Part shown: in pieces, positions 1 through 10,687 of the stretch
Layout: each line of letters begins with the position of its first letter
How positions within the stretch are numbered: position 1 is the stretch's first letter
IMG/VR virus record: IMGVR_UViG_2740892444_000005
Span: 1-10,687 of that record
Length of the DNA stretch: 10,687 nucleotides
Source of the DNA: a virus
Taxonomy: Duplodnaviria > Heunggongvirae > Uroviricota > Caudoviricetes
Reading direction: 5' to 3' (one strand)
Made by a program: the position numbers and the translations under genes
Notes under the pieces: model-generated
Database searches by the model: none
What the model was told of the DNA's origin: nothing
The model's input: only the letters and a program-made list of their open reading frames with translations

Positions 1-16
1 TTACAAACTCACTACA

Positions 17-340
17 ATGCTGTATAATTCGCGAAGAGTGAATTTAGCTAGTGCATCCATAGGTTCAATTCCTATGCCTACAATTCTCATCACAGCTCTC
101 CTAATAGTCGCATTTATCCGTTACCTCAACGTGTTACTTAACGATTACGTCAGTAAGGAGAAGCCTATGAGTAAATTATTCTGCCATGTAGTACTATATG
201 TATCTTGTTTCATTGAAACTTTTTGGGCTGGGGTGATAAGTGTAGTAGCGGGTCTGATGACGGGCGGTGTCCAAATTATTTTGGCACTAGCTAAATCTTC
301 TCAATTTTTGTTTTTTTATTCAAAGCACTTACACCCATAA
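17..340 (+). CDS. small hydrophobic protein of unknown function (possible membrane peptide); 5' end unresolved
   Basis: The frame is open back to the window start (no in-frame stop in nt 2-16), so the gene may be 5'-partial. An alternative internal start ATG at 177 is preceded by AAGGAG (165-170). The product has hydrophobic stretches (ILITALLIVAF; GVISVVAGLMTGGVQIILALA). I recognise no family. Confidence 0.3.
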   Translation: MLYNSRRVNLASASIGSIPMPTILITALLIVAFIRYLNVLLNDYVSKEKPMSKLFCHVVLYVSCFIETFWAGVISVVAGLMTGGVQIILALAKSSQFLFFYSKHLHP

Positions 341-908
341 ATATTATTTAAATCAATAAACTAAGTCACTCTACGCATATTTTCCTTATCATGGTCTTTC
401 GTGTTTTTTGTACTCAACATGATCGTTTCCCCTTTCTTTAATACACAGTGTGATTAGCTACGTCTTCTGTTGGAGCGAAGTGGACGGGTTAATTGAGCTG
501 AATGTCAGCTATGAGCGAAGAGCGGACTTGAGACTATTGTAAATGAAAACCATATAATTTTAACCGGCAGAAACACATGAGTAATTTTAAGGCTAATTAG
601 TTATCTGGGAGATGAGGGGCAAAGCACGATATCGTACACCAATGGAATAACCTTATGATTAATATAAATATAAAAGACAGAAAGCCTTCCTCAAAATGGC
701 TTGAATCAGGTGCATCTGTCTGCGAAACGATTTTTTAGACGTTTTTATCGCTTTCAGTTCAGTTTTCCCCTCGAATCCAAGTGACAAAGCCGATTTAGTT
801 TTCACACATCCGTACAATGTGCATCCCTCGATGAGCCTTTTCAGGCAAAGTTACGGGGATGCTTGATTCATTTAAACTGAGTTAGTACAACTTAATTAAT
901 AATATCAT

Positions 909-1955
909 TTATGCTAGAGTTGAATATTCTCCATTTCCTCGGTCGGTGAGTGTTAATTCGCGGCCATTTTCTGTAAATGTAATGGCATCCAGCAGGCTTT
1001 TTCCTGTTACAGCTATACCATATCCAAGGTTATCAATCTTTGAACTGTCCTCAGATGATATTGGTATTTGTACAAGCATACCAACAACAAAGCCGTATTT
1101 GTTAATTATAGGGCCACCGCTATTCCCCCCCTTAACCCTAGCATTGAATAATAAAAAGTCTTGTGAATCTAAGTAAGAGTGACCAGAACCAACAATTCGC
1201 CCCTTTGACAGTCGGACAAACGAATTTATATGCGAAACGTCATATAACTTTAATGCATCAAATCCTGGAATGGGTGGAAATCCTATTGATAAAATTTCAT
1301 CCAGTACCGAGGCTTTGGTTGAGACCTTAAGTGGTTGAATATTATCTTCCTTCGGAATGGTTGTGAAAACTAAAGCGATATCAATACGTTCATCGTTAGA
1401 TACAAAGATTTTATGTATTGGTAAAGCCTCACCACCAGCTCTAAGTATCCTGATACTCTTCATGTCTTCAATAACATGTCTGGCTGTAAATATCGTGTGG
1501 TTATTCCCAACAATAAAACTAGTACCAAGATCATGTGAACCATCACTTTTTTCAACAACAACAGGTAAAACGGAAGGACTAAGGCGGTCTATGATTGACT
1601 CAAATCCATCAGCTATAAAATCATACTTTCCATATTTCGCATCTGATTCATTGAAATTCGGTGCGAAATAGCAACGGTCAAAAAGAGTATGTCCTGAAGA
1701 CAATTCCATTAAAATACCTTCAGTTGCTAGCTTTTCACAATTGCGTATTAACTTCATCATATCGAGAGTATTTTCCCACTCAGGTTTGAGACGGGTCAGG
1801 CTCTCAATTGTTTTTCTCTCTTTTACGTTATCGTTTTCCGGTTTGTCATAAAAATATTTCACTATTTCTGTTGGTGTTACATATGTTTTTTTTATAGTCA
1901 TTTTTGTACCCGCGATGACGTTATTCCATATATTTTTCTTTGTAGAAAATATCAC
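909..1955 (-). CDS. trypsin-like (S1/PA-clan) serine protease with uncharacterised ~135-aa N-terminal domain; no obvious signal peptide
   Basis: 348-aa ORF. The catalytic triad is in canonical order and context: His160 in TARHVIED, Asp192 in DIALVF, Ser279 in GGNSGGP (codons at nt ~1119-1121 on the minus strand). The N-terminus is not hydrophobic, so the protein is probably cytoplasmic. The start at 1955 is GTG; an alternative ATG lies at 1901 (M19). Neither has a strong Shine-Dalgarno sequence. The gene is AT-rich. Confidence 0.8.
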   Translation of the reverse strand: MIFSTKKNIWNNVIAGTKMTIKKTYVTPTEIVKYFYDKPENDNVKERKTIESLTRLKPEWENTLDMMKLIRNCEKLATEGILMELSSGHTLFDRCYFAPNFNESDAKYGKYDFIADGFESIIDRLSPSVLPVVVEKSDGSHDLGTSFIVGNNHTIFTARHVIEDMKSIRILRAGGEALPIHKIFVSNDERIDIALVFTTIPKEDNIQPLKVSTKASVLDEILSIGFPPIPGFDALKLYDVSHINSFVRLSKGRIVGSGHSYLDSQDFLLFNARVKGGNSGGPIINKYGFVVGMLVQIPISSEDSSKIDNLGYGIAVTGKSLLDAITFTENGRELTLTDRGNGEYSTLA

Positions 1956-2361
1956 TATTGCTGGTAAATGTTAAGTTCAGTGCTCGCACTAAAGCTGGAT
2001 GATCAACGTCGCCCTCGTATGGAAATCAGGTAAGATTCATGTCTACTTGGGGTCTAGGGTAGACAGCATAAAAACGTACGATAGCGTTCGATTGGCTCTC
2101 ACCCCCGCCTATAAACCATGAGGTTGATAGGGTAGTATCGTTAGGCAATAGTATACATGTAAGTATCCAACCTAATTGGTCTTGAGATTTCTAACTAACG
2201 TGTCGTTATGTCCGCTTTTGGCACATAGCAGTCCTAGAGACAGTGTCGTAAAGTCATGTAGGATCGGTGGGAGGAGGTAAAAATCCTCTCATACAAAAAT
2301 ACGTAAAATCGATAACGGCTGGAGATCATTCAATACTCGCCCTATCGAAAGCTCACCAGCC

Positions 2362-2397
2362 AGCCGCAACACGTTCTTACATATGACGTGTCTGCGG
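2362..2397. repeat. imperfect-palindrome hairpin element, copy A (paired with copy B at 4832-4867)
   Basis: AGCCGCAACACGTTCTTACATATGACGTGTCTGCGG matches 4832-4867 at 30 of 36 positions. It folds as CCGCA-ACACGTT / AACGTG-TGCGG with a 1-nt bulge. Weaker similarity extends into both flanks (ACCA..GCC upstream, TC.AA.C downstream). Confidence 0.6.
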
Positions 2398-2410
2398 TTT
2401 CAACTCCACC

Positions 2411-2447
2411 AGCCCACCAATCATGATTGGGCTTTTTCGTTTTTCTT
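2411..2447 (+). terminator. putative intrinsic terminator (GC-rich hairpin followed by T-tracts)
   Basis: AGCCCACCAATCATGATTGGGCT (stem AGCCCA/TGGGCT) is followed directly by TTTTTCGTTTTTCTT. The T-run follows the hairpin only on the plus strand. No plus-strand ORF lies upstream of it. Confidence 0.55.
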
Positions 2448-2574
2448 CACCTGCAAGCAAACCGTTGTATCATGGCGGAATGAAGATGAGCTAGGAATAA
2501 TCTTACGAATCAGCTCAATATTCATATAAAAACATTTCGAACTTTGGTGTACAAAACTACATAGGGATAACTTT

Positions 2575-3777
2575 ATGTCTCTTCGTTTCAGACAAACCTT
2601 TACTCTATTTCCTGGCGTTCGACTCAACATTGGCAAGCGTGGAATAAGTGCAAGCATTGGCGTGCCTGGCGCAACTGTCAATGTTGGTAAAAAAGGGGTT
2701 AGAGCAACTGTCGGATTACCGGGCACAGGCTTATCTTATACTACACCTACCTTGCCCTATGATGATGGATACTCAGTTACCAATCCATTAAATCCAGCCC
2801 CTACAGAACCTCATTTGGGGTCTGGGTCATCTCCAGAAAATACACCATCGAACGCTAAAATATATATGCCTGTAGCTGGCATGAATGAAATATCCAGCGC
2901 TTCGGTAGAAGTCCTTACAAGTACCTCCCTTTTACCTTTACGAGATTTGATTGCTAAAGCACGAGAACAAAGAGCAGAAATAAAAGCAGATCTTCAAGAG
3001 GCTCTTGCCGAAGAATCAAAACAAAAAAGCGAGCTGGCTCGACGCAAATCAAGTCTATTCCGTTGGTTTTACAAACGACGCATCGCAGAACTTGAGACAC
3101 TACTCCCCCTAACCCAAGCTGAGATATCTCGCCTAGTTTCATGGGAAGACAGCACAAAAATAGCCATAACATTCGAGAGCAGTGATGCTTCACAGCGCGC
3201 ATATGCAGCGATGGTCCATGCATTTGATATGTTAAAATCGAGTGTCAAAAAATGGGATATTACTGCAGATAAAGCTACAGACCAGTTTGCTGAAAGAACA
3301 TTAGCAACCCGGTCTGTTAATCGTCACCCAGTTACCTTTGATTTTAGTTCAACGGATCTCATTCAATTTACAGGGCGTGCGATGAGGTTTGAAAATGTGA
3401 ATGGAGACGATATTTTGCTTTATCCTGGAGTTGCAGTCATACCACGAGCTGATGGAGCATTCGCTCTGATTGATTTACGCGAATTACAAATTAATTCAGA
3501 ATATCTAAGATTCCATGAGGAAGAAGGTGTTCCCAGTGACTCACGCATAGATGGTTATACATGGGCGAAAACGAATAAGAATGGCTCACCAGACCGTCGT
3601 TTTAAAGATAACTACCAAATCCCTATTTGCATTTATGGAAATATTACTTTCCATTCTCAAACAGGGGTAACTGAAGAATATATGGTATCAAATGCAGATG
3701 CCGCGCACGCCTTTGCTGAGGCAGTAAAACGTTATCAGATTTCACTCACAGAAACAGAAGCGTTGGTACAGGCCTGA
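2575..3777 (+). CDS. DUF4236-type protein (N-terminal Gly/Lys/Arg-rich DUF4236-like module, P/S/T-rich linker, predicted coiled coil, uncharacterised C-terminal domain)
   Basis: 400-aa ORF with ATG at 2575 and RBS AGGGA at 2563-2567. The N-terminus RFRQTFTLFPGVRLNIGKRGISASIGVPGATVNVGKKGVRATVGLPGTGLSY matches my recollection of the DUF4236 signature. A low-complexity linker (PTLPYDDGYSVTNPLNPAPTEPHLGSGSSPENTPSN) and a charged helical segment (AKAREQRAEIKADLQEALAEESKQKSELARRK) follow. I cannot assign the C-terminal ~200 aa. The gene is AT-rich. Confidence 0.85.
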   Translation: MSLRFRQTFTLFPGVRLNIGKRGISASIGVPGATVNVGKKGVRATVGLPGTGLSYTTPTLPYDDGYSVTNPLNPAPTEPHLGSGSSPENTPSNAKIYMPVAGMNEISSASVEVLTSTSLLPLRDLIAKAREQRAEIKADLQEALAEESKQKSELARRKSSLFRWFYKRRIAELETLLPLTQAEISRLVSWEDSTKIAITFESSDASQRAYAAMVHAFDMLKSSVKKWDITADKATDQFAERTLATRSVNRHPVTFDFSSTDLIQFTGRAMRFENVNGDDILLYPGVAVIPRADGAFALIDLRELQINSEYLRFHEEEGVPSDSRIDGYTWAKTNKNGSPDRRFKDNYQIPICIYGNITFHSQTGVTEEYMVSNADAAHAFAEAVKRYQISLTETEALVQA

Positions 3778-3836
3778 TTTATCGCCGATATGGGGACGAA
3801 TCGTAGGTTAAAACCCCCTAGAACAAAAAAAACCTT

Positions 3837-3864
3837 AAGAACCAGACTATTATGGCTGGTTCTT
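3837..3864. other. perfect 9-bp-stem hairpin between the two cassette genes (possible terminator/attenuator)
   Basis: AAGAACCAG-(10 nt loop)-CTGGTTCTT. It lies 60 nt after the stop of the 2575-3777 gene and is preceded by an A8 tract (3823-3830). That gives a T8 run after the hairpin on the minus strand, with a 4-nt spacer. There is no clean T-run after it on the plus strand, so orientation and function are ambiguous. Confidence 0.3.
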
Positions 3865-3881
3865 GTACGGAGGATTTGTTA

Positions 3882-3908
3882 TTGTACAACTCTTCTATCT
3901 GGTATATT
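3882..3908 (+). promoter_or_regulatory. candidate sigma70 promoter with extended -10 for the DUF2971 gene
   Basis: -35-like TTGTAC (3882-3887), a 15-bp spacer (short), TG at 3900-3901 and -10 TATATT (3903-3908), i.e. TGgTATATT. It lies ~80 nt upstream of the ATG at 3991. Motif match only. Confidence 0.3.
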
Positions 3909-3990
3909 TACGGATAGAACTGTTCAGGCTACTCAATCCTTTTTAAGTACAAATGAACAGATAGAAATAGTTATATTGCAAGGAGCTATC

Positions 3991-4779
3991 ATGCACACTG
4001 AGTATATATGGCGATACCTTGACATAGAGAAATTCTCTATGTTACTCGAACAAAATGCTTTATTTTTTTGCTCAGCAAAAAATTTTGAAGATCCGTTCGA
4101 AGGTGAATTTGCTTGGGGACATACTGGCTATAAAAAATTCATTGAGACACAGGAAAAACTATGCGCTACTTATGGTGCCGGCATGGACTTAGATCCTTTC
4201 ATGGCATTCAATTTAAAGACACTTAAGGAAATAAGCGAGAGGACATATATAAGTTGCTGGCATTGTAACGAACATGAATCTGAAGCTATGTGGAAGCTGT
4301 ATTGTAAAAACCCCGCTAAAGGCGTTGTCATAAAATCAAAGAAAAAAAACCTCCAAAGCCAACTTGAAAATAATAATCTAAACAAACTACAATTAAAACA
4401 CGTAAAATACGTCAAAAATTTCTGGATAAAACAATACAATCCAGAATCAGATGTATTCTTTAACAAGAGACCATCTTTCGAATACGAAAAAGAGTTTAGA
4501 GCTATTTTTCAAGAGAATACCTTTAACACTCCACCTGTAAAGGGAAAACTAGTCCCTGTATCTCTTAATAATCTGTTGGAAGAAATAAGGATTTCACCTT
4601 TCGCAGATAAGGATTTCAAAAATGAAGTTTTACAAATTTCAAAAAAACATGGACTAGATCTGAAAGTCAAAAACTCTGAAATTGAAATGCATCCCATCAT
4701 GCATGTTGAGGAAGAAATAATTGCAGAAGGCCCCAATTGGTATCAGTCAAAAATCAGATTGGCAATACGTGATGCTTAA
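3991..4779 (+). CDS. DUF2971-type protein
   Basis: 262-aa product starting at the ATG at 3991, which is preceded by AGGAG (3981-3985). The ORF-track start at 3790 is rejected because it has no RBS and the extension spans the hairpin. The family hallmarks as I recall them are present: YIWRYLDIEKFSMLLEQNALFFCSAKNFEDPFEGEF, CWHCNEHESEAMWKLYCKNPAKGVVIK and FEYEKEFRAIF. The gene is AT-rich. Confidence 0.85.
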   Translation: MHTEYIWRYLDIEKFSMLLEQNALFFCSAKNFEDPFEGEFAWGHTGYKKFIETQEKLCATYGAGMDLDPFMAFNLKTLKEISERTYISCWHCNEHESEAMWKLYCKNPAKGVVIKSKKKNLQSQLENNNLNKLQLKHVKYVKNFWIKQYNPESDVFFNKRPSFEYEKEFRAIFQENTFNTPPVKGKLVPVSLNNLLEEIRISPFADKDFKNEVLQISKKHGLDLKVKNSEIEMHPIMHVEEEIIAEGPNWYQSKIRLAIRDA

Positions 4780-4831
4780 TCTTATATTGAAGTTTTTTAT
4801 GTCTCCTGCTGAAACTAGCTAAAATTTACCA

Positions 4832-4867
4832 AGCCGCAGCACGTTATTGCATACAACGTGTATGCGG
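4832..4867. repeat. imperfect-palindrome hairpin element, copy B; probable bidirectional terminator between convergent DUF2971 gene and tfa
   Basis: AGCCGCAGCACGTTATTGCATACAACGTGTATGCGG has the same fold as copy A. It lies 15 nt from the tfa stop (4883-4885) and ~50 nt after the DUF2971 stop. Confidence 0.6.
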
Positions 4868-4882
4868 CGTATCTCAAAACGA

Positions 4883-5467
4883 TTACTCCATAACAGGGAC
4901 AGCAGGCCACTCAATATCAGGTGCAGTTGATGTATCAACACGGTTCAGCAACACCCGATACTTCTTCCAGGCTTCCAGCAACGAGTTTTCTTCCTCCGTT
5001 GCGATCTCCAGATCTACAGCATCCTGAAGTGGCGCAATATGCTCACTGGCTACCTGCATCAGGCTGTTTTTTGTTTCTTCCGCCTCCCGGATCCGGAACA
5101 GTTTTTCTGCTTCCGTATCCTTCACCCAGGCTGTGCCGTTCCACTTCTGAAACTCCCCTTCCGGCGATAACCAGGTAACATTTTCCGGTAACGGACCGAG
5201 TTCAGAAATAAATAACGCGTCGCCGGAAGCCACGTCATAAACCGTTTTACCCCGATGGTCTTCAACGAGATGCCACGATGCCTCATCACTGTTGAAAACA
5301 GCCACAAAGCCAGCAGGAATATCTGGTGGTGCAATATCGGTACTGTTTGCTGGCAGACCTGTATGAGGCGGAATATATGCGTCACCTTCACCAATAAATT
5401 CATTAGTCCCGACCAGCAGATTATAAATTTTTATGGTCCGTGGTTGTTCACTCATTCTGAATGCCAT
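4883..5467 (-). CDS. tfa: tail fiber assembly protein (lambda Tfa-like)
   Basis: 194-aa product, [18 protein letters not shown]...EWPAVPVME, is near-identical in length and sequence to lambda Tfa as I recall it. Its start overlaps the upstream stf stop (TAATG on the minus strand at 5465-5469). Confidence 0.9.
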
Positions 5468-6678
5468 TATGCAAGCCTCACAATATAGTTAAATGCGATG
5501 TTTTTGACGGTGTTTTCCGCATTACCAGCAGCGTTAACGGTGATGGTGTGTCCATGTGAACCAATCGCAACGGAGTGCGTATGAGCACCAATACCGACAG
5601 TATGCGCGTGTGCACCTGCAGATGCTGCTGTGCCGGACAGTGAGTGGCTATGATTACCATCTGTACTGGTATTAGCTAACCACCCCGTAGACATACCTAC
5701 TGAGCCTTGTACACCCCAGGTATTTTGACCTGAGCTTGTATAACCATATTGATAAGTATCTTTAAAAACACTGGGGTTAAATCGACGGCCATCTCTATGG
5801 CTGTGATTACCAGCTGCATTCGTGCTGCCACTTAAACTATGAGTATGCGCACCAGTGTTATTCGTGGATTTAGTGCCGTAATCAAACGATGATGTGGTTT
5901 TCGTACCCAAATCCGTACTGGATACGCTGGCGCTGTGGGTGTGCGATTTAATGCCGTCCTGTTCCTGAGACAATACGGCACGACCACTGGCGGGCTTGCC
6001 CTTAATCGTCCAGCCACGCATATCAGGGATCACGCCTGACGGATAAGCGGCTGCAAGTTTCGGGTAAGCAGATTTGTCAAAAGTCTGCCCCTGCATCAGG
6101 GCATAACCAGACGGAACGGTATCTGATGGCCACGGGATTGGTGCGCCGACTGGGTAGCTTTCTGGTGGAAGATTTTTCGAGGTATAAACTTCTGCCCAGT
6201 CTTCCTCAAAACCATAACCGTCTCTTGAAGAACGGTAGAACAGACCACCATTTCTGTAATGCGCCTTCATCTGCAGGGTCCGGCAACTTCCGACTCCGGT
6301 ATAGAAGTTAACCAGAATATAGCTGTCGCCAGAGCGGGTGACATTGTAAGCGCCTGATTCGGCATTCCAGGGAACGCCACCATCCGCATCGGCATATGTA
6401 TCCGTTGCCCTTCTGGCAAAAGCAGCCACATGCGCGGCGGTTATCCAGATTAACCAAATCCTTGTTGTTGGGGAATAACTAGGTCCACCTCGCCTGATGT
6501 GGCTAAAAGCAGGCACATAACAGCTAAGTATTTTCAACCAGAGAGAATCCTTAGCGTTGTGGTGAATGCGGCTCAGCGCACGCGGGTTAAGGTTGAGGCT
6601 GACAGTCGACCTTCTGTGGATACCCACCCGCCTGGTGTGCAACCTTCGCCAGGCACCGGGAGGCACCCGGCACCACAA
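5467..6678 (-). pseudogene. stf: side tail fiber protein remnant (C-terminal portion only, 5'-truncated)
   Basis: The C-terminal ~320 aa match the lambda Stf / StfR-type C-terminus as I recall it ([31 protein letters not shown]...[25 protein letters not shown]...[27 protein letters not shown]), including the periodic His-rich motifs (GAHTHS, GNHSHS, GAHAHT, GSHGHT). The N-terminal ~85 aa of the ORF (nt ~6420-6678) read as non-protein-like sequence, and no plausible start or upstream stf body is present. Full-length Stf is far longer. Confidence 0.8.
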
Positions 6679-6701
6679 CTTTATGCTGTGTGTAGTCCTG
6701 G

Positions 6702-6747
6702 CGGTACCAGTTTGTACCCTTGCTTCCGGCTGGTACCGTCCTTTTTT
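6702..6747 (+). terminator. putative intrinsic terminator (9-bp perfect stem, T6 tract)
   Basis: CGGTACCAG (6702-6710) and CTGGTACCG (6730-6738) form a perfect inverted repeat, each arm containing GGTACC, with a 19-nt loop. It is followed by TCC then TTTTTT (6742-6747). The T-run is on the plus strand only. The loop is unusually long. Confidence 0.4.
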
Positions 6748-6748
6748 G

Positions 6749-6835
6749 CAAAACAGAGAAGAGCATCACCGGACGACGGGCTCATAACCCAATCCATCCG
6801 GGCGGCTGCCACCGCAGGTGTTCTTCTCTGTTTTG
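6749..6835. repeat. long inverted repeat / extended hairpin (14-bp perfect arms, ~59-nt spacer) upstream of the yfdP-like gene
   Basis: CAAAACAGAGAAGA (6749-6762) pairs with TCTTCTCTGTTTTG (6822-6835). The pairing extends imperfectly inward (ATCACC.. with ..GGTG). It sits immediately after the 6702-6747 hairpin and ~50 nt upstream of the yfdP-like start. Confidence 0.4.
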
Positions 6836-6884
6836 TGGAGAAACCAACCGACCTTGCAGGGTCGATATGATGAGGAGCAGCAAA

Positions 6885-7247
6885 ATGGCTAGCGAACGCA
6901 GTACTGATGTGCAGGCATTTATCGGGGAGCTGGACGGCGGCGTATTTGAAACCAAAATCGGCGCAGTTCTCAGTGAAGTCGCTTCCGGTGTGATGAACAC
7001 GAAAACCAAAGGGAAGGTCTCACTCAATCTGGAAATCGAACCGTTTGATGAGAACCGTGTGAAAATCAAACACAAACTCTCATATGTTCGCCCAACTAAC
7101 CGCGGGAAAATTTCTGAAGAAGACACCACCGAAACGCCGATGTATGTCAATCGCGGTGGTCGCCTGACTATTCTGCAGGAAGACCAGGGACAATTACTGA
7201 CTCTTGCCGGTGAGCCTGACGGAAAACTCCGCGCAGCAGGTCATTAA
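6885..7247 (+). CDS. yfdP: YfdP-like prophage protein (unknown function)
   Basis: 120-aa product starting MASERSTDVQAFIGELDGG, from the ATG at 6885 preceded by GAGGAG (6872-6877). Alternative in-frame ATGs at 6867 and 6870 would add 5-6 aa. Length and sequence match my recollection of K-12 CPS-53 YfdP; the symbol is from memory. Confidence 0.65.
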   Translation: MASERSTDVQAFIGELDGGVFETKIGAVLSEVASGVMNTKTKGKVSLNLEIEPFDENRVKIKHKLSYVRPTNRGKISEEDTTETPMYVNRGGRLTILQEDQGQLLTLAGEPDGKLRAAGH

Positions 7248-7312
7248 TATCGTTCTTAATTAACTGATTATTTATCTCATCACTGAATATCTTAATATAG
7301 TGAGGACTTATT

Positions 7313-8137
7313 ATGTCTCAGAACTTAGACGCAACCGCAATTAATCAAATCCATGCCCTTATTTCTGCTCAGGGTGTTAATGAAATTATCAGTAAGATTG
7401 GTGCCGATGCTGTGGCATTGCCTGAGAATTTCCGCATTCATGATCTGGAAAAATTTAATTTAAATCGCTTCCGTTTCCGTGGTGCGCTTTCCACTGCCAG
7501 CATCGATGACTTTACCCGTTATTCTAAAGATCTTGCAGATGAAGGCACCCGCTGCTTTATCGATGCTGATAATATGCGTGCCGTCAGTGTGCTTAACCTG
7601 GGTACTATTGATGAACCAGGTCACGCAGATAACACCGCCACTCTCAAACTGAAAAAGACAGCACCGTTCTCTGCCCTGTTGTCTGTTAACGGCGAGCGTA
7701 ACGCCCAGAAATCACTGGCAGAATGGATTGAAGACTGGGCAGACTACCTTGTGGGCTTTGATGCTAATGGTGACGCCATTCAGGCAACAAAAGCGGCTGC
7801 GGCAATCCGTAAAATCACGATTGAAGCAAACCAGACCGCTGATTTTGAAGATAATGACTTCAGCGGCAAACGCTCCCTGATGGAATCTGTCGAAGCGAAG
7901 ACCAAAGACATTATGCCAGTGGCATTTGAATTTAAATGCGTTCCGTTTGAAGGTCTGAAAGAACGTCCGTTTAAATTACGCCTCAGCATTATCACTGGCG
8001 ATCGTCCTGTACTGGTTCTGCGCATTATTCAGCTGGAAGCGGTGCAGGAAGATATGGCTAACGAATTTCGTGATCTGCTTGTTGAGAAATTCAAAGACAG
8101 CAAAGTAGAAACCTTTATTGGTACTTTCACCGCCTGA
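7313..8137 (+). CDS. yfdQ: YfdQ-like prophage protein (DUF2303 family)
   Basis: 274-aa product starting [26 protein letters not shown], with RBS GAGGA at 7303-7307. It matches my recollection of K-12 YfdQ (274 aa). Confidence 0.8.
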
Positions 8138-8149
8138 TTTCATTACTGC

Positions 8150-8171
8150 AAATGCCCCTGTGGGGGCATTT
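8150..8171 (+). other. hairpin after yfdQ-like gene (weak candidate terminator/attenuator)
   Basis: AAATGCCCC-TGTG-GGGGCATTT: a 9-bp perfect stem with a 4-nt loop, 13 nt after the yfdQ stop. The T residues lie inside the 3' arm rather than forming a free U-tract, so termination is uncertain. Confidence 0.25.
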
Positions 8172-8264
8172 ATGGAAACGTAATTAACTCAATAATCACC
8201 GAATGGTGAGGGCTTCCTTTTACCCAAACTCAGCGCGGTGCAGCGCATATACGTGGAGAACAAA

Positions 8265-8801
8265 ATGTCATTTATTAAAACTTTTTCCGGGAAGCATTTT
8301 TATTATGACAAGATAAATAAAGACGACATCGTGATTAACGATATCGCGGTTTCCCTTTCAAATATCTGCCGCTTTGCCGGTCATCTTTCTCACTTCTACA
8401 GTGTCGCCCAACATGCGGTGCTTTGCAGCCAGCTGGTGCCGCAGGAATTTGCTTTTGAAGCGTTAATGCATGATGCAACAGAAGCGTATTGCCAGGACAT
8501 CCCCGCACCACTGAAACGCCTTCTTCCTGACTATAAACGGATGGAAGAAAAAATAGATGCAGTAATCCGTGAGAAATACGGGTTACCTCCTGTTATGAGC
8601 ACGCCAGTGAAATATGCCGATCTCATTATGCTGGCAACCGAACGCCGTGATCTCGGGCTTGATGATGGCTCTTTATGGCCTGTACTGGAAGGTATCCCGG
8701 CAACAGAGATGTTCAAAGTTATTCCACTGGCACCGGGCCATGCCTACGGGATGTTTATGGAACGCTTCAACGAGTTATCGGAATTACGCAAATGTGCATA
8801 A
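8265..8801 (+). CDS. yfdR: HD-domain phosphohydrolase (YfdR-like)
   Basis: 178-aa product from the ATG at 8265 (RBS GGAGAA at 8255-8260; the ORF-track start at 8238 is rejected). It has HD-superfamily motifs (HLSHFYSVAQHAVL; ALMHDATEAYCQD). It matches my recollection of K-12 YfdR. Confidence 0.85.
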   Translation: MSFIKTFSGKHFYYDKINKDDIVINDIAVSLSNICRFAGHLSHFYSVAQHAVLCSQLVPQEFAFEALMHDATEAYCQDIPAPLKRLLPDYKRMEEKIDAVIREKYGLPPVMSTPVKYADLIMLATERRDLGLDDGSLWPVLEGIPATEMFKVIPLAPGHAYGMFMERFNELSELRKCA

Positions 8802-9670
8802 CTCATGTAGTTAGTTTTTCTGGCGGGAGAACATCCGCATATCTTGTTCACCTGATGGAAGAACAAAGAAAGGCTGGCAATAACGTCTGCTACATCTTTA
8901 TGGATACCGGTTGCGAACATCCGCTGACATACCGCTTTATCCGGGAGGTTGTGAAGTTCTGGGACATACCACTAACTGTGTTACAGGTCGATATAAATCC
9001 TGAGCTTGGGCAGCCAAATGGTTATACAGAATGGGAGCCAAAGGATATTCAGACACGAATGCCGGTGCTTAAACCGTTTATGGACATGGTTAAAAAGTAC
9101 GGCACGCCATACATCGGCGGCGCGTTCTGTACTGACAGGCTAAAACTCATCCCTTTCACGAAATACTGCGATAACCATTTCGGACGAGGTAATTACATCA
9201 CATGGCTGGGTATTCGTGCAGACGAACCCCGTAGGCTGAAACCGAAATCGGGCATCCGGTATCTTGCCGAGCTGTCAGATTTTGATAAGTCGGATGTTAT
9301 CCGGTGGTGGCGAAAACAACCTTTTGATTTGCAAATCCCGGAGCATCTCGGGAACTGTGTTTTCTGCATCAAAAAGTCAACGCAAAAGCTGGGGCTTGCA
9401 TGTAAAGACGAACCAGGTCTGATGCGAGTTTTTAATGAGCTGGTTACAGGCAAACACGTCAGGGATGGTCATCGCAGAACAGGTAAAGACATTATGTACC
9501 GTGGTCACCTGACGCTTGACGGAATTGCCAGAATGTCTGCCAACAGCGACTACAGAAATTTGTATCAGGCAATGGTACAGGCCAGGCGATTCGATACCGG
9601 CTCGTGTTCAGAGTCATGTGAAATCTGGGGTGATCAATTGGAATTGGAATTCGAAGAGGTAGGGGTATGA
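8792..9670 (+). CDS. PAPS-reductase-like / PP-loop ATP-pyrophosphatase family protein (phage type)
   Basis: 292-aa product from the ATG at 8792, which overlaps the yfdR stop (ATGTGCATAA). The N-terminal PP-loop motif SFSGGRTS is present. Relatives are common in lambdoid prophage early regions. The ORF-track start at 8675 is rejected because it would overlap yfdR by ~40 codons. Confidence 0.8.
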   Translation: MCITHVVSFSGGRTSAYLVHLMEEQRKAGNNVCYIFMDTGCEHPLTYRFIREVVKFWDIPLTVLQVDINPELGQPNGYTEWEPKDIQTRMPVLKPFMDMVKKYGTPYIGGAFCTDRLKLIPFTKYCDNHFGRGNYITWLGIRADEPRRLKPKSGIRYLAELSDFDKSDVIRWWRKQPFDLQIPEHLGNCVFCIKKSTQKLGLACKDEPGLMRVFNELVTGKHVRDGHRRTGKDIMYRGHLTLDGIARMSANSDYRNLYQAMVQARRFDTGSCSESCEIWGDQLELEFEEVGV

Positions 9671-10011
9671 CAACCGAAATCAGCTACCATGCACTGCTTG
9701 AGCGCGCACGGAATAAAGTGCAGAGCATTGAGTTCGCCTTAACACAGAGTGCATTCGCTGAGATTCGCGCTGAGCTTGAAAATGATTTAGAACTGGCACG
9801 GATTGCACTGGCATCTCTGGAAGTTGAGCCAGATGAACGCGCAGCCTATGAATTATTTATGGAAAAGCGTTTCGGTAAAACAGTCGATCGTCGGAGAGCA
9901 AAAAACGGCGATAACGAATACATGGCATGGGATATGACTCTCGGTTGGATCGTCTGGCAGCAACGAGCTGGTATCCATTTTTCAACAATGTCACAGCAAG
10001 AGGTGAAATAA
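9667..10011 (+). CDS. hypothetical prophage early-region protein
   Basis: 114-aa ORF. Its ATG overlaps the upstream stop (ATGA at 9667-9670) and its stop overlaps the xis start (TAATG at 10009-10013). Acidic, helical-looking sequence. No family recognised. Confidence 0.65.
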   Translation: MTTEISYHALLERARNKVQSIEFALTQSAFAEIRAELENDLELARIALASLEVEPDERAAYELFMEKRFGKTVDRRRAKNGDNEYMAWDMTLGWIVWQQRAGIHFSTMSQQEVK

Positions 10012-10361
10012 TGGAGCCATACAGCCTCACACTCGATGAGGCCTGTCATTTTCTCAAGATATCCAGACCGACTGCCATTAACTGGATACGCACAGGGCGT
10101 CTTCAGGCAACACGCAAAGATCCCACTAAGAATAAATCTCCTTACCTCACAACACGACAAGCCTGCATTGCGGCTCTTCAGTCTCCGCTGCATACTGTCC
10201 AGGTGAGCGCGGGTGATGGCATAACAGAGGAAAGAAAATGTCACTCTTCCGCAGAGGTGAAATATGGTACGCCAGTTTCACATTGCCGAACGGTAAAAGA
10301 TTTAAACAGTCTCTTGGAACAAAGGACAAAAGGCAGGCGACAGAACTCCATGACAAGCTAA
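10011..10361 (+). CDS. xis: excisionase (P22 Xis-like)
   Basis: 116-aa product [40 protein letters not shown], with RBS GAGGTGA at 10002-10008. It matches my recollection of P22-type Xis in length and sequence. It sits immediately upstream of, and overlapping, the integrase start. Confidence 0.75.
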
Positions 10362-10687
10362 AGGCTGAAGCATGGCGGGTCAGCAAACTTGGTGAAATAC
10401 CTGATATAACGTTCGAGGAAGCGTGTGTCAGGTGGCTTGAAGAGAAAGCACATAAAAAATCACTGGACGATGACAAAAGCCGGATCGGATTCTGGCTTCA
10501 ACATTTCGCAGGAATGCAACTAAGAGACATTACTGAATCAAAAATTTATTCAGCAATGCAGAAAATGACGAACCGGCGTCATGAGGAAAACTGGAAACTC
10601 AGGGCAGAAGCATGCAGAAAAAAAGGGAAACCTGTTCCAGAATACACGCCAAAACCAGCGTCCGTTGCAACGAAGGCTACGCACTGA
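10238..10687 (+). CDS. int: tyrosine integrase, N-terminal (arm-binding) region only; frame ends at TGA 10685-10687
   Basis: [46 protein letters not shown] is the N-terminus of P22 / CPS-53 IntS-type integrases as I recall them. RBS AGAGGA at 10226-10231. The frame terminates after 149 aa, whereas family members are ~385 aa. No catalytic domain is visible in this window. Confidence 0.8.

Follow-up and report, generated by a model that had tools for sequence, protein, structure and literature searches.

The stretch of DNA analyzed here, 10,687 nucleotides that we call the window, is contained as an exact piece in the E. coli draft contig GCA_000804345.1. Its left part (positions 1 to 4800), which lies outside the deletion described below, is a cargo or "moron" block at the tail fiber-distal end of a prophage, in which Pfam searches recovered an S1/trypsin-like peptidase on the minus strand (909 to 1955) and, on the plus strand, a DUF4236 protein (2575 to 3777) and a DUF2971 protein (beginning at 3790 or 4039 and ending at 4779). 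PADLOC assigns the DUF2971 protein to the candidate defense family PDC-S31 (E = 2.6e-20). Beyond the cargo lies tfa (4883 to 5467, minus strand), coding for a predicted tail fiber assembly chaperone. Intact at 194 amino acids (aa), as the first-pass annotation had held, its product aligns without gaps over all 194 residues with the lambda Tfa protein (186 identical; 96%) and matches Caudo_TAP (PF02413; E = 8e-45) and PHROG 105. The start of tfa at 5467 overlaps the stf stop, and the presence of a full-length Caudo_TAP open reading frame (ORF) immediately downstream of stf places the predicted product in the Tfa family. An Rfam IS009 match is found inside tfa, with a single-sequence fold weakly better than shuffles (z = -2.1).

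The stf remnant itself occupies positions 5467 to 6443 of the minus strand and comprises the C-terminal 324 codons (5467 to 6441) of a lambda-type side tail fiber. It retains the collar domain and a His-rich tip homologous to lambda orf-314, the C terminus of lambda Stf (176/249 identities in the tip; 71%), and it agrees with the estimate of a surviving C-terminal piece of about 320 aa. The full-length isogenic Stf has 1176 aa, with both PF08400 (phage_tail_N) and Phage_fiber_2; the N-terminal 852 residues, including the tail attachment domain, have been deleted. Within the longer ORF at this position (5467 to 6678, minus strand), matches to tail fiber families are confined to the C-terminal part: Pfam detects only Collar (E = 2e-12), gp37_C, and Phage_fiber, and neither the PF08400 tail attachment domain nor the long shaft, whereas PHROG 295, annotated as "tail fiber protein," is matched with an E value of 6e-141. 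Likewise, a BLASTP alignment with the 1120-aa StfR of strain Ec1119 begins only at ORF residues 77 to 80, corresponding to StfR residues 806 to 808. Judged by its domain content, stf' is best classified as a fragment rather than a functional member of the lambda-type Stf family.

The remaining 5' part of that frame (6444 to 6678, minus strand) is not stf sequence and is an accidental extension that runs antisense to the leader of the early-left operon. With it, the mechanically delimited ORF reaches 403 aa from a TTG start and has no exact-protein record; the gene caller on record instead chose a TTG at 6537, preceded by AAGGA, giving a 356-aa product that an exact-protein look-up finds in one contig only. 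Look-ups of 267-aa and 320-aa versions returned nothing but Stf fragments from Rac-like and Qin-like loci, which are unrelated.

On the plus strand, positions 6444 to 6884 are the leader that natively precedes the distal early-left genes, a stretch contiguous with yfdP in SWYH.B349aT (99.98% identity), WCHEC020031 (98.2%), and Ec-U11 (96.8%). The leader matches PHROG 33599 and holds a degenerate small ORF (6559 to 6870) that PGAP elsewhere labels a "frameshifted hypothetical protein." An interval of some 450 bp had been noted between the end of stf homology and the early genes; the distance holds (442 nt to yfdP), but it is no gap, since from 6444 on the sequence belongs throughout to the native early-left region and the fusion itself lies at 6443. 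The retained distal early-left genes (6885 to 10361, plus strand; Pfam and PHROGs) are yfdP (6885 to 7247), yfdQ (DUF2303; 7313 to 8137), yfdR (HD phosphatase; 8265 to 8801), a PAPS reductase-like gene (8792 to 9670), a hypothetical gene (9667 to 10011), and the excisionase gene xis (9927 or 10011 to 10361), in the same order that is seen downstream of cI in D10, SWYH, and Ec-U11. They are followed on the same strand by the N-terminal 148 codons of a tyrosine integrase gene (10238 to 10683; PHROG 10426), the thrW-specific int of relatives, which we take to be P22-Int-like. Identity with intact int ends at 10683, where IS10 has inserted into the gene; the last 4 nt of the window (CTGA, 10684 to 10687, plus strand), recognized from the continuation of the source contig, are the first of the IS10 terminal repeat and provide the shortened int ORF with its stop codon. 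Past the window, the contig continues with TGAATCCCCTAAT and then ends, 13 nt beyond the window and inside the IS10 end that interrupts int. In SWYH.B349aT, an IS10 family element occupies the identical 9-bp target, GGCTACGCA.

On the left side, the part of the source contig beyond the window contains one further cargo gene, an att repeat, and the chromosomal LysR', paoD, and paoC genes. A copy of the 45-nt att core lies 1575 to 1619 nt to the left of the window, and the same repeat is present at thrW in SWYH and Ec1119. In close relatives, tRNA-thrW is the integration site of this type of prophage, which lies between paoD and proA and has thrW-proA directly after int; as the thrW side of the source strain lies beyond the end of the contig, the thrW placement rests on these relatives and on the left flank. 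The element thus combines a left att repeat with xis and int at its right end, as do tRNA-linked cryptic prophages, and it is devoid of the lytic genes that the siblings D10, Ec1119, and SWYH have at the same place, between stf and yfdP. On these grounds, the window can be assigned by sequence to a defective lambdoid prophage of the type found at tRNA-thrW in relatives. In J, lom, stf, tfa, and its HK97-type head, the prophage is of lambda-like make, and it combines these with a yfdPQR module like that of CPS-53. The P22-like comparison that had been proposed does not extend to its structure, as only int and xis resemble P22 and the structural genes of the siblings are of lambda/HK97 type.

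The first-pass annotation had interpreted this arrangement as a large internal deletion that fused a tail fiber remnant to the early-left region, with stf homology ending near 6420. The deletion is supported at the nucleotide level from both parents, but base-level comparison moves the end of stf to 6443. The left parent is matched within stf through 6443 and the right parent is matched perfectly within the leader from 6442, so that a three-way alignment places the join at 6443|6444 over a 2-bp perfect microhomology, TA (6442 to 6443), embedded in an imperfect one (4/5; GGTTA versus GGATA). Exact extension against the isogenic parents L010 (left) and L006 (right) gives the same join. Ten other prophage copies (L010 to L019) are 100.000% identical to window positions 1 to 6443 (0/6443 differences), and all run on into a longer or complete stf; the stf genes of Ec1119, PSJ-29, Ec-U11, and D10 lose homology to the window at exactly 6443, with no difference from the D10 gene over the 975 nt of stf'. 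On the other side, SWYH.B349aT matches window positions 6439 to 10687 at 99.976%, and there the matching stretch is preceded by cI/cro, replication, lysis, head, and tail genes. The break falls inside an stf codon. Neither filler DNA nor an insertion sequence occurs at the join, no repeats linking its two sides were found, neither side has a second copy in the window, and no site-specific recombination site is present there. The joint thus has the makeup of a microhomology deletion, with identity of a few base pairs and no long homology.

Head, tail shaft, lysis, Q, replication, cro, and cI genes are all absent from the window by ORF, Pfam, and PHROG analyses, in line with the earlier reading that the genes normally separating the two blocks are missing. 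That reading would have been undermined by structural genes lying outside the window in a rearranged but complete phage; the visible flanks of the source contig contain none. We pieced the ancestor together from the overlapping siblings L010, SWYH, and D10, as none of the assemblies compared contains a wholly intact copy that has both flanks at 100% identity. It would have been a prophage of about 45 kb with the order att, cargo, tfa, stf, lom, J, tail, head, terminase, lysis, and Q/nin, followed by replication, cro, cI, oL/pL, leader, yfdPQR, the PAPS reductase-like gene, xis, int, and thrW. When placed on the nearly complete prophage of D10, the left breakpoint corresponds to L008 position 9208 and the right breakpoint lies between the end of cI (41277) and the point at which homology resumes (41761). 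By this measure, about 32 kb has been lost, comprising the N terminus of stf, lom, J, the tail, head, lysis, Q, replication, cro, and cI genes, and oL/pL-like operators; the deleted segment includes the motif AACTAAG-N4-TTAGAT with a promoter-like site (L006 31566 to 31627).

Taken together, these observations very probably identify the feature as the scar of one large illegitimate deletion, at the level of microhomology, in a lambda-like prophage. A single break-and-join event would have connected stf codon 852/853 to the DNA some 780 bp downstream of cI via TA, probably through RecA-independent illegitimate recombination or end joining at the microhomology. One event is the most parsimonious account, and two or more successive deletions with the same final joint are also possible. 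Both retained blocks appear from consensus scans and repeats to be transcriptional orphans, because stf'/tfa has lost the late promoter and yfdP-xis has lost pL. What is left, about 13 kb plus the insertion sequence, is a grounded, noninducible cryptic prophage. The deletion is likely to be recent, given that the remnant carries no substitutions.

The same prophage type has suffered comparable losses repeatedly. The ten copies identical over positions 1 to 6443 display at least seven other deletion patterns. In these isogenic loci, five first junctions could be placed exactly and have microhomologies of 2 to 5 bp (TACCC, TA, TAA, TA, and TTA), and the junction of the VE-T2 type has GGAT. The sibling alleles (the VE-T2 group, SWYH.B349aT, and L011 to L019) have the same cargo and flanks 99.98 to 100% identical to those of the window, and all are internal deletions with 2 to 5 bp of microhomology where resolved; their endpoints, in contrast, differ in every allele, and the deletion in the window is the largest among alleles retaining all of tfa and yfdP. 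Within stf, the breakpoints are spread over different places (window-equivalent positions 6443, 6601, 6935, 7333, 7774, and 9060). In the complete genomes VE-T2 and SWYH.B349aT, the prophage adjoins thrW. The VE-T2 type joins the 3' end of tfa (5096) to the PAPS reductase-like gene (8902), so that tfa is truncated with the cargo kept in 13 complete-genome records of this group; in SWYH.B349aT, tfa has been removed and the cargo is joined to a truncated J; and in L019, an in-frame replication protein::Stf fusion has formed. We considered whether the VE-T2 allele could descend directly from that of the window, but this is disfavored because its int is intact and that of the window is disrupted by IS10. 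For VE-T2, the sequences expected from a nested deletion and from one separate deletion in an intact ancestor are indistinguishable.

Two other origins for the joint have to be weighed. The draft assembly might have wrongly connected two prophage fragments at 6443|6444. The contig ends at an IS10 repeat, which marks its source as a short-read assembly, and the junction is seen in that one draft assembly only and hence is without independent replication: a 300-nt probe found no spanning match in 5,426 complete E. coli genomes, and a 35-nt exact pattern found none in GTDB representative genomes or JGI metagenomes. However, assemblers need shared k-mers and the identity between the two sides is limited to 2 bp, the sequence at neither side recurs in the window, and the contig is on record for two samples. 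Moreover, analogous junctions of 2 to 5 bp occur in closed genomes (the VE-T2 group, SWYH.B349aT, Ec-U11, and WCHEC020031) as well as in several other drafts, which makes a misassembly highly improbable. We give even less credence to an origin by modular assembly, in which a small int-xis-yfdPQR element would have gained a cassette of tfa, stf tip, and cargo from another prophage. Lambdoid phages are mosaics, yfdPQR is also found with other integrases and sites (proL in PSJ-29 and argW in K-12 CPS-53), and stf tips are present in Rac-like and Qin-like remnants as well, all of which would fit such an origin. Against it, both flanks are 99.98 to 100% identical to copies of one prophage type that sits between paoD and thrW in the complete genomes SWYH.B349aT and Ec1119, and in those copies the genes between the flanks are still present, in the order typical of lambda; the position of the break within a codon and the remnant's loss of its own N-terminal domain and start codon likewise speak for a deletion.

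A different question, concerning the persistence of the remnant rather than its origin, is why tfa is intact beside a dead stf. Against five homologues, tfa has dN/dS values of 0.10 to 0.24, indicating purifying selection in the phage gene pool; as a test of selection after the deletion we rejected this ratio, because the remnant has accumulated no substitutions since the event. Indeed, stf' (975 nt), tfa, and the cargo show zero substitutions relative to isogenic copies, and because of this recency an intact tfa is the neutral expectation, which is sufficient without invoking selection. It had been suggested that selection on the adjacent cargo or a terminator retained tfa. Neither is needed, although the cargo part draws some indirect support: the cargo block is kept in every allele seen and is 99.98 to 100% identical in VE-T2, SWYH.B349aT, and L010 to L019, even where tfa is truncated or removed. 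The terminator part fails, as the interval from the start of the scan to the tfa stop (4700 to 4882) contains no terminator-like site and the counts of promoter- and terminator-like sites in 4700 to 7400 by consensus scan are within shuffle expectation.

Lambda Stf is reported to use OmpC. A more specific proposal for the persistence of the remnant is that the 324-aa tip, expressed together with Tfa via the 5' extension or by read-through and folded by this chaperone, would mask an outer membrane receptor and block the adsorption of phages that depend on that receptor. This has a precedent in the chimeric StfE2 of cryptic prophage e14, which is reported to block T2 adsorption (PMC12529663) and of which the remnant would be an activation-free analogue. 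The open frame with collar and tip beside an intact chaperone gene, the acceptance of the 356-aa product by the gene caller with AAGGA ahead of its TTG, and the recurrence of Stf-tip plus Tfa remnants at other prophage loci are consistent with retention for such a function. Nevertheless, zero substitutions since the deletion leave no time for visible selection, tfa and stf are truncated or altogether lost in sibling alleles, and the breakpoints in stf do not cluster at a domain border. Further, the late promoter has been deleted, the promoter-like sites upstream are not above chance, and no invertase or other activating device is found nearby. We hence regard retention of the remnant for such a function as very unlikely, and the receptor-masking activity itself as equally doubtful. 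If true, it would offer a selective reason for the recurrent stf-tip-plus-tfa end state at several prophage loci.

The closest analogue of the deleted prophage is K-12 CPS-53 (KpLE1), whose remnant architecture is similar. There, yfdK (tail fiber assembly) and yfdL (a C-terminal fiber pseudogene) lie on one strand and face yfdP-yfdQ-yfdR-...-xis (torI) on the opposite strand, the structural, lysis, and immunity genes having been deleted; yfdP-yfdR is 98.8% identical in DNA to window positions 6866 to 8799. Unlike the window, CPS-53 occupies argW, has another integrase (intS) at the opposite end, and carries gtrABS, whereas Pfam detects no gtr genes in the window. It also keeps yfdM, yfdN, and yfdO fragments (methylase, PerC, and replication) between its fiber remnant and yfdP, where stf' in the window joins the leader directly; its tfa and stf remnants have no DNA similarity to those of the window, and yfdS takes the place of the PAPS reductase-like gene. 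From this comparison, the window is a related mosaic and not CPS-53, the yfdPQR module alone being common to both. With lambda, in which stf-tfa corresponds to orf-401/orf-314/orf-194, the intact siblings share the orders J-lom-stf-tfa-(b region cargo)-att and cI-pL-early left-xis-int. The window differs in having lost the N-terminal 852 residues of Stf, in its yfdPQR-type early-left genes in place of exo/bet/gam, and in an Int that targets thrW in relatives, and the head module of the siblings is of HK97 type. The grounding and decay of prophages have been described (PMC6379469), a picture for which PMC3105296 and PMC7744054 are also cited. Like grounded defective prophages in general, the element combines an int inactivated by an insertion sequence, internal deletion of lethal functions, and retention of moron or cargo genes, and it differs from them in nothing of substance, being a specific and precisely mapped case.

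The finding is thus an instance of ordinary, well-known prophage decay, here mapped to the base. By itself it matters little, as this is textbook prophage inactivation of which CPS-53 already provides a similar example, and its modest value lies in its precision and context. This prophage lineage includes no fewer than ten different deletion alleles whose flanks are essentially identical. They may constitute a natural data set on prophage decay, and such a series could reveal the spectrum of decay in size, endpoints, and microhomology, its tempo, and which of the ends, the cargo or the early-left module, tend to be kept preferentially.

An ORF listing and family searches over the whole window place at its left a cargo block of low GC content (~0.35; ~0.5 in the phage genes) that encodes an S1 peptidase (909-1955, minus strand), a DUF4236 protein (2575-3777, plus) and a DUF2971 protein (up to 4779, plus). 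It is followed on the minus strand by the tail fiber assembly gene tfa (4883-5467) and a tail-fiber ORF (5467-6678), and on the plus strand by yfdP (6885-7247), yfdQ/DUF2303 (7313-8137), yfdR (8265-8801), a PAPS-reductase-like gene (8792-9670), a hypothetical gene (9667-10011), an excisionase gene (to 10361) and a tyrosine integrase gene of which only the first 148 codons are present (10238-10683). No tRNA gene was found in the window. The PAPS-reductase-like gene belongs to PHROG 424 and matches PADLOC SspD (E = 1.4e-14), with weak DndC/BrxP matches; its slot is held by yfdS in K-12 CPS-53, D10 and Ec-U11, which points to a module swap inside the early-left operon.

We found that the tail-fiber ORF has tail-fiber homology only from about residue 80 on, the BLASTP match beginning at ORF residue 77 and residue 806 of the 1,120-aa StfR of strain Ec1119, and that family searches retrieve only Collar, gp37_C and fiber-repeat domains. 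The first 79 codons of this mechanical ORF are the early-left leader read antisense. The 324 stf codons kept, out of 1,176 in isogenic copies, agree with the ~320 aa of surviving Stf reported in the first-pass annotation; its placement of the homology end near 6420 needs correction to 6443, the exact point at which DNA similarity ends for each of four independent stf genes that are complete or longer than the remnant (Ec1119, PSJ-29, Ec-U11 and D10). The Stf tip shares 71% identity with lambda orf-314, and Tfa is intact, as had been claimed (194 aa, 186/194 identical to lambda Tfa, gap-free). Within the tip, a variable region between His-rich repeats (5653-5826, residues ~285-343) is identical in D10 and the window; in Ec1119, PSJ-29 and Ec-U11 it has diverged from the window beyond the reach of BLASTN, its flanks being 96-99% identical. 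The Rfam family IS009 (RF02111) has a full-length match at 4926-5124 (minus strand; 227 bits versus a gathering score of 117), all of it on the coding strand of tfa and in the 3' half of that gene; its single-sequence fold is weakly better than shuffles (z = -2.1), and the stretch is mostly kept (4926-5096) in the VE-T2-type deletion alleles of complete genomes and not at all in the SWYH.B349aT prophage.

To the right of the join, window positions 6439-10687 are 99.976% identical to the SWYH.B349aT prophage, and the same early-left stretch is 98.2% identical in WCHEC020031 and 96.8% in Ec-U11. Because all three strains have this stretch shortly after the cI-like repressor gene, running unbroken into yfdP, the 442 nt that separate yfdP from the stf breakpoint are native leader and no gap; they account for the ~450-bp spacing noted earlier. 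The leader carries a degenerate small ORF (labeled a frameshifted hypothetical protein by PGAP), a 24-nt inverted repeat just upstream of yfdP (6749-6772/6812-6835, 83% complementary, 39-nt spacer) and, also upstream of yfdP, a minus-strand terminator-like hairpin (6866-6847). In a three-way alignment with exact extension against the isogenic parents, stf matches through 6443 and the leader from 6442, so that the parents share a perfect microhomology of 2 bp, TA (4/5 for GGTTA versus GGATA), and no inserted bases or IS were found at the join.

The extent of the loss can be read from D10, where thrW harbors a prophage of this type that is almost complete, in the order tfa, stf, lom, J, tail genes, HK97-type head, terminase, lysis, Q region, replication, ymfL, cro, cI, yfdPQRST, xis, int, thrW. 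On the D10 map (L008) the left breakpoint is 9208 and the right one lies after cI, which ends at 41277, and before homology restarts at 41761, giving a deletion of ~32 kb; the remnant totals ~13 kb plus IS, versus ~45 kb for the reconstructed ancestor. With both parents matched, these data support the earlier proposal that a large internal deletion joined the stf remnant to the early-left region. In SWYH.B349aT (L006), operator-like repeats AACTAAG-N4-TTAGAT overlap a plus-strand promoter-like site just downstream of cI (31566-31627), and repeats AACTAAG-N4-(C/G)TTAG recur in the cI/cro intergenic region (30825-30889); the two sets are probably the oL/pL and oR of an e14/ymfK-type immunity region. 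As both fall in the segment missing from the window, the yfdP-xis block is without its repressor and probably also without its pL-type promoter.

The alternative of a rearranged but complete phage, with the structural genes outside the window, is opposed by the source contig. The 356-aa version of the chimeric ORF occurs, by exact-protein look-up, in one contig on record (GCA_000804345.1, JUJZ01000037.1; 2 samples), of which the window is an exact substring. Its left flank holds one further cargo gene, an att core copy 1575-1619 nt before the window start, LysR', paoD and paoC, and on the right it stops 13 nt past the window, within the IS10 outside end CTGATGAATCCCCTAAT; no structural genes were found as far as it extends (left into paoC, right 13 nt). 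Since the contig runs into the IS10 end, int is cut after codon 148 and its closing TGA is IS10 sequence (10684-10687); relatives whose int is intact have thrW and proA directly after it. In SWYH.B349aT, the same 9-bp target GGCTACGCA of int holds an IS10-family element (ISVsa5, L006 36564-37888), with the inside end facing int where the window has the outside end. These opposite orientations at one target imply either that a hotspot was hit independently or that an inversion took place.

Ten sibling copies (L010 to L019), found by exact Tfa protein look-up and all with the same cargo, are 100.000% identical to window 1-6443 (10/10) and then run further into stf. L010 is collinear through J and I, and the nine others show at least seven other deletion patterns. 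The surviving stf part is joined to the terminase region in L012/L018 (microhomology TACCC), to a Q-proximal region in L014 (TA) and to a replication gene in L019 (TTA), the last an in-frame fusion encoding a 682-aa replication-protein::Stf. L015 and L017 are multi-deletion alleles (first junctions TAA and TA), L011 joins J' to the terminase region, and L013/L016 join lom' to the ymfL region. The VE-T2 type (13 records, complete genomes) joins 5096 in tfa to 8902 in the PAPS-reductase-like gene at GGAT, with int intact and flanks 99.98-100% identical to the window, and in SWYH.B349aT, also a complete genome, only the final 11 nt of tfa remain, linked to a truncated J, with the capsid and tape-measure genes fused by a second deletion. 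Across this series (L010 to L019, L001 and L006), one prophage is represented by at least ten different alleles with internal deletions, their flanks 99.98-100% identical and their window-equivalent breakpoints at 4893, 5096, 6443, 6601, 6935, 7333, 7774 and 9060, among others. Similar non-isogenic remnants occur at thrW (Ec-U11 and WCHEC020031) and at proL, where PSJ-29 has tfa followed by an stf' of 488 codons and by yfdP.

The window has one joint between two points ~32 kb apart with 2 bp in common; across the alleles endpoints are scattered, and the resolved joints have 2-5 bp of microhomology, with TA within several. The deletion probably arose by RecA-independent illegitimate recombination, through slipped mispairing or end-joining at microhomology, a route that is generally established for spontaneous E. 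coli deletions. Removal of lethal lytic functions would have helped fixation, the prophage having perhaps lost the ability to excise, in this strain at least, through the disruption of int by IS10; this corresponds to the "grounding" idea of PMC6379469.

Why tfa is intact was earlier tentatively attributed to selection on the adjacent cargo or a terminator. A check for purifying selection gives tfa dN/dS of 0.10-0.24 versus five homologues, which mirrors selection in the phage gene pool and not in this remnant. Because the remnant shows zero differences (0/975 in stf' versus D10; 0/6443 versus the ten isogenic copies), an intact tfa beside a cut stf is the neutral expectation for a recent deletion with an endpoint falling by chance in stf. 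The scan shows no terminator-like site in the part it covers downstream of tfa, and near the junction promoter and terminator counts fall within the range expected from shuffled sequence. Sibling alleles in which tfa is partly or wholly lost still have the cargo at 99.98-100% identity, which suggests that the cargo, if anything, is the part preferentially kept. A role of the Stf tip and Tfa as a receptor mask against phage adsorption is conceivable because a chimeric Stf of e14 is reported to block adsorption of T2 (PMC12529663); we consider it very improbable here.

The slot between tfa and att varies among thrW lambdoid prophages: in the window (1-4800) it holds the S1 peptidase, which matches protease modules of retron and Lamassu-type models, DUF4236 and DUF2971 (PADLOC candidate PDC-S31, E = 2.6e-20); in Ec-U11, avs2 (L005 10060-14514); in D10, a DEAD/DEAH helicase pair (L008 4471-7094); and in WCHEC020031, a GIY-YIG protein (L007 5136-5909). 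The slot resembles a defense-gene hotspot. A module boundary lies at 2298-2397, homology to the PSJ-29 proL remnant and Survcare253 beginning at 2298-2301. Two strains have in the chromosome, close to ykgJ, a sequence with 88% identity to 84 nt of this region (2300-2383), and in Ec-U11 a sequence adjoining avs2 matches 2211-2397 at 84% identity; the 2298-2397 region could represent a short dispersed repeat.

Among described elements, the one most like this remnant is K-12 CPS-53. There yfdK (tfa) and yfdL' (a pseudogene of the tail-fiber C terminus) share one strand and yfdP-yfdQ-yfdR-yfdS-yfdT-torI face them from the opposite strand, the phage middle being missing. Its yfdP-yfdR are 98.8% identical to those of the window, whereas its att site, integrase, cargo and tail-fiber sequences differ, and unlike the window it retains yfdM/N/O fragments. 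Qin, Rac and e14 of K-12 have similar ends made of an stf remnant and tfa, and exact-protein look-ups place Stf tips identical to that of the window in such cryptic-prophage loci. The feature is of an already known kind, in an allele private to one assembly, and what is added here is solely its base-level map and the series of sibling alleles.
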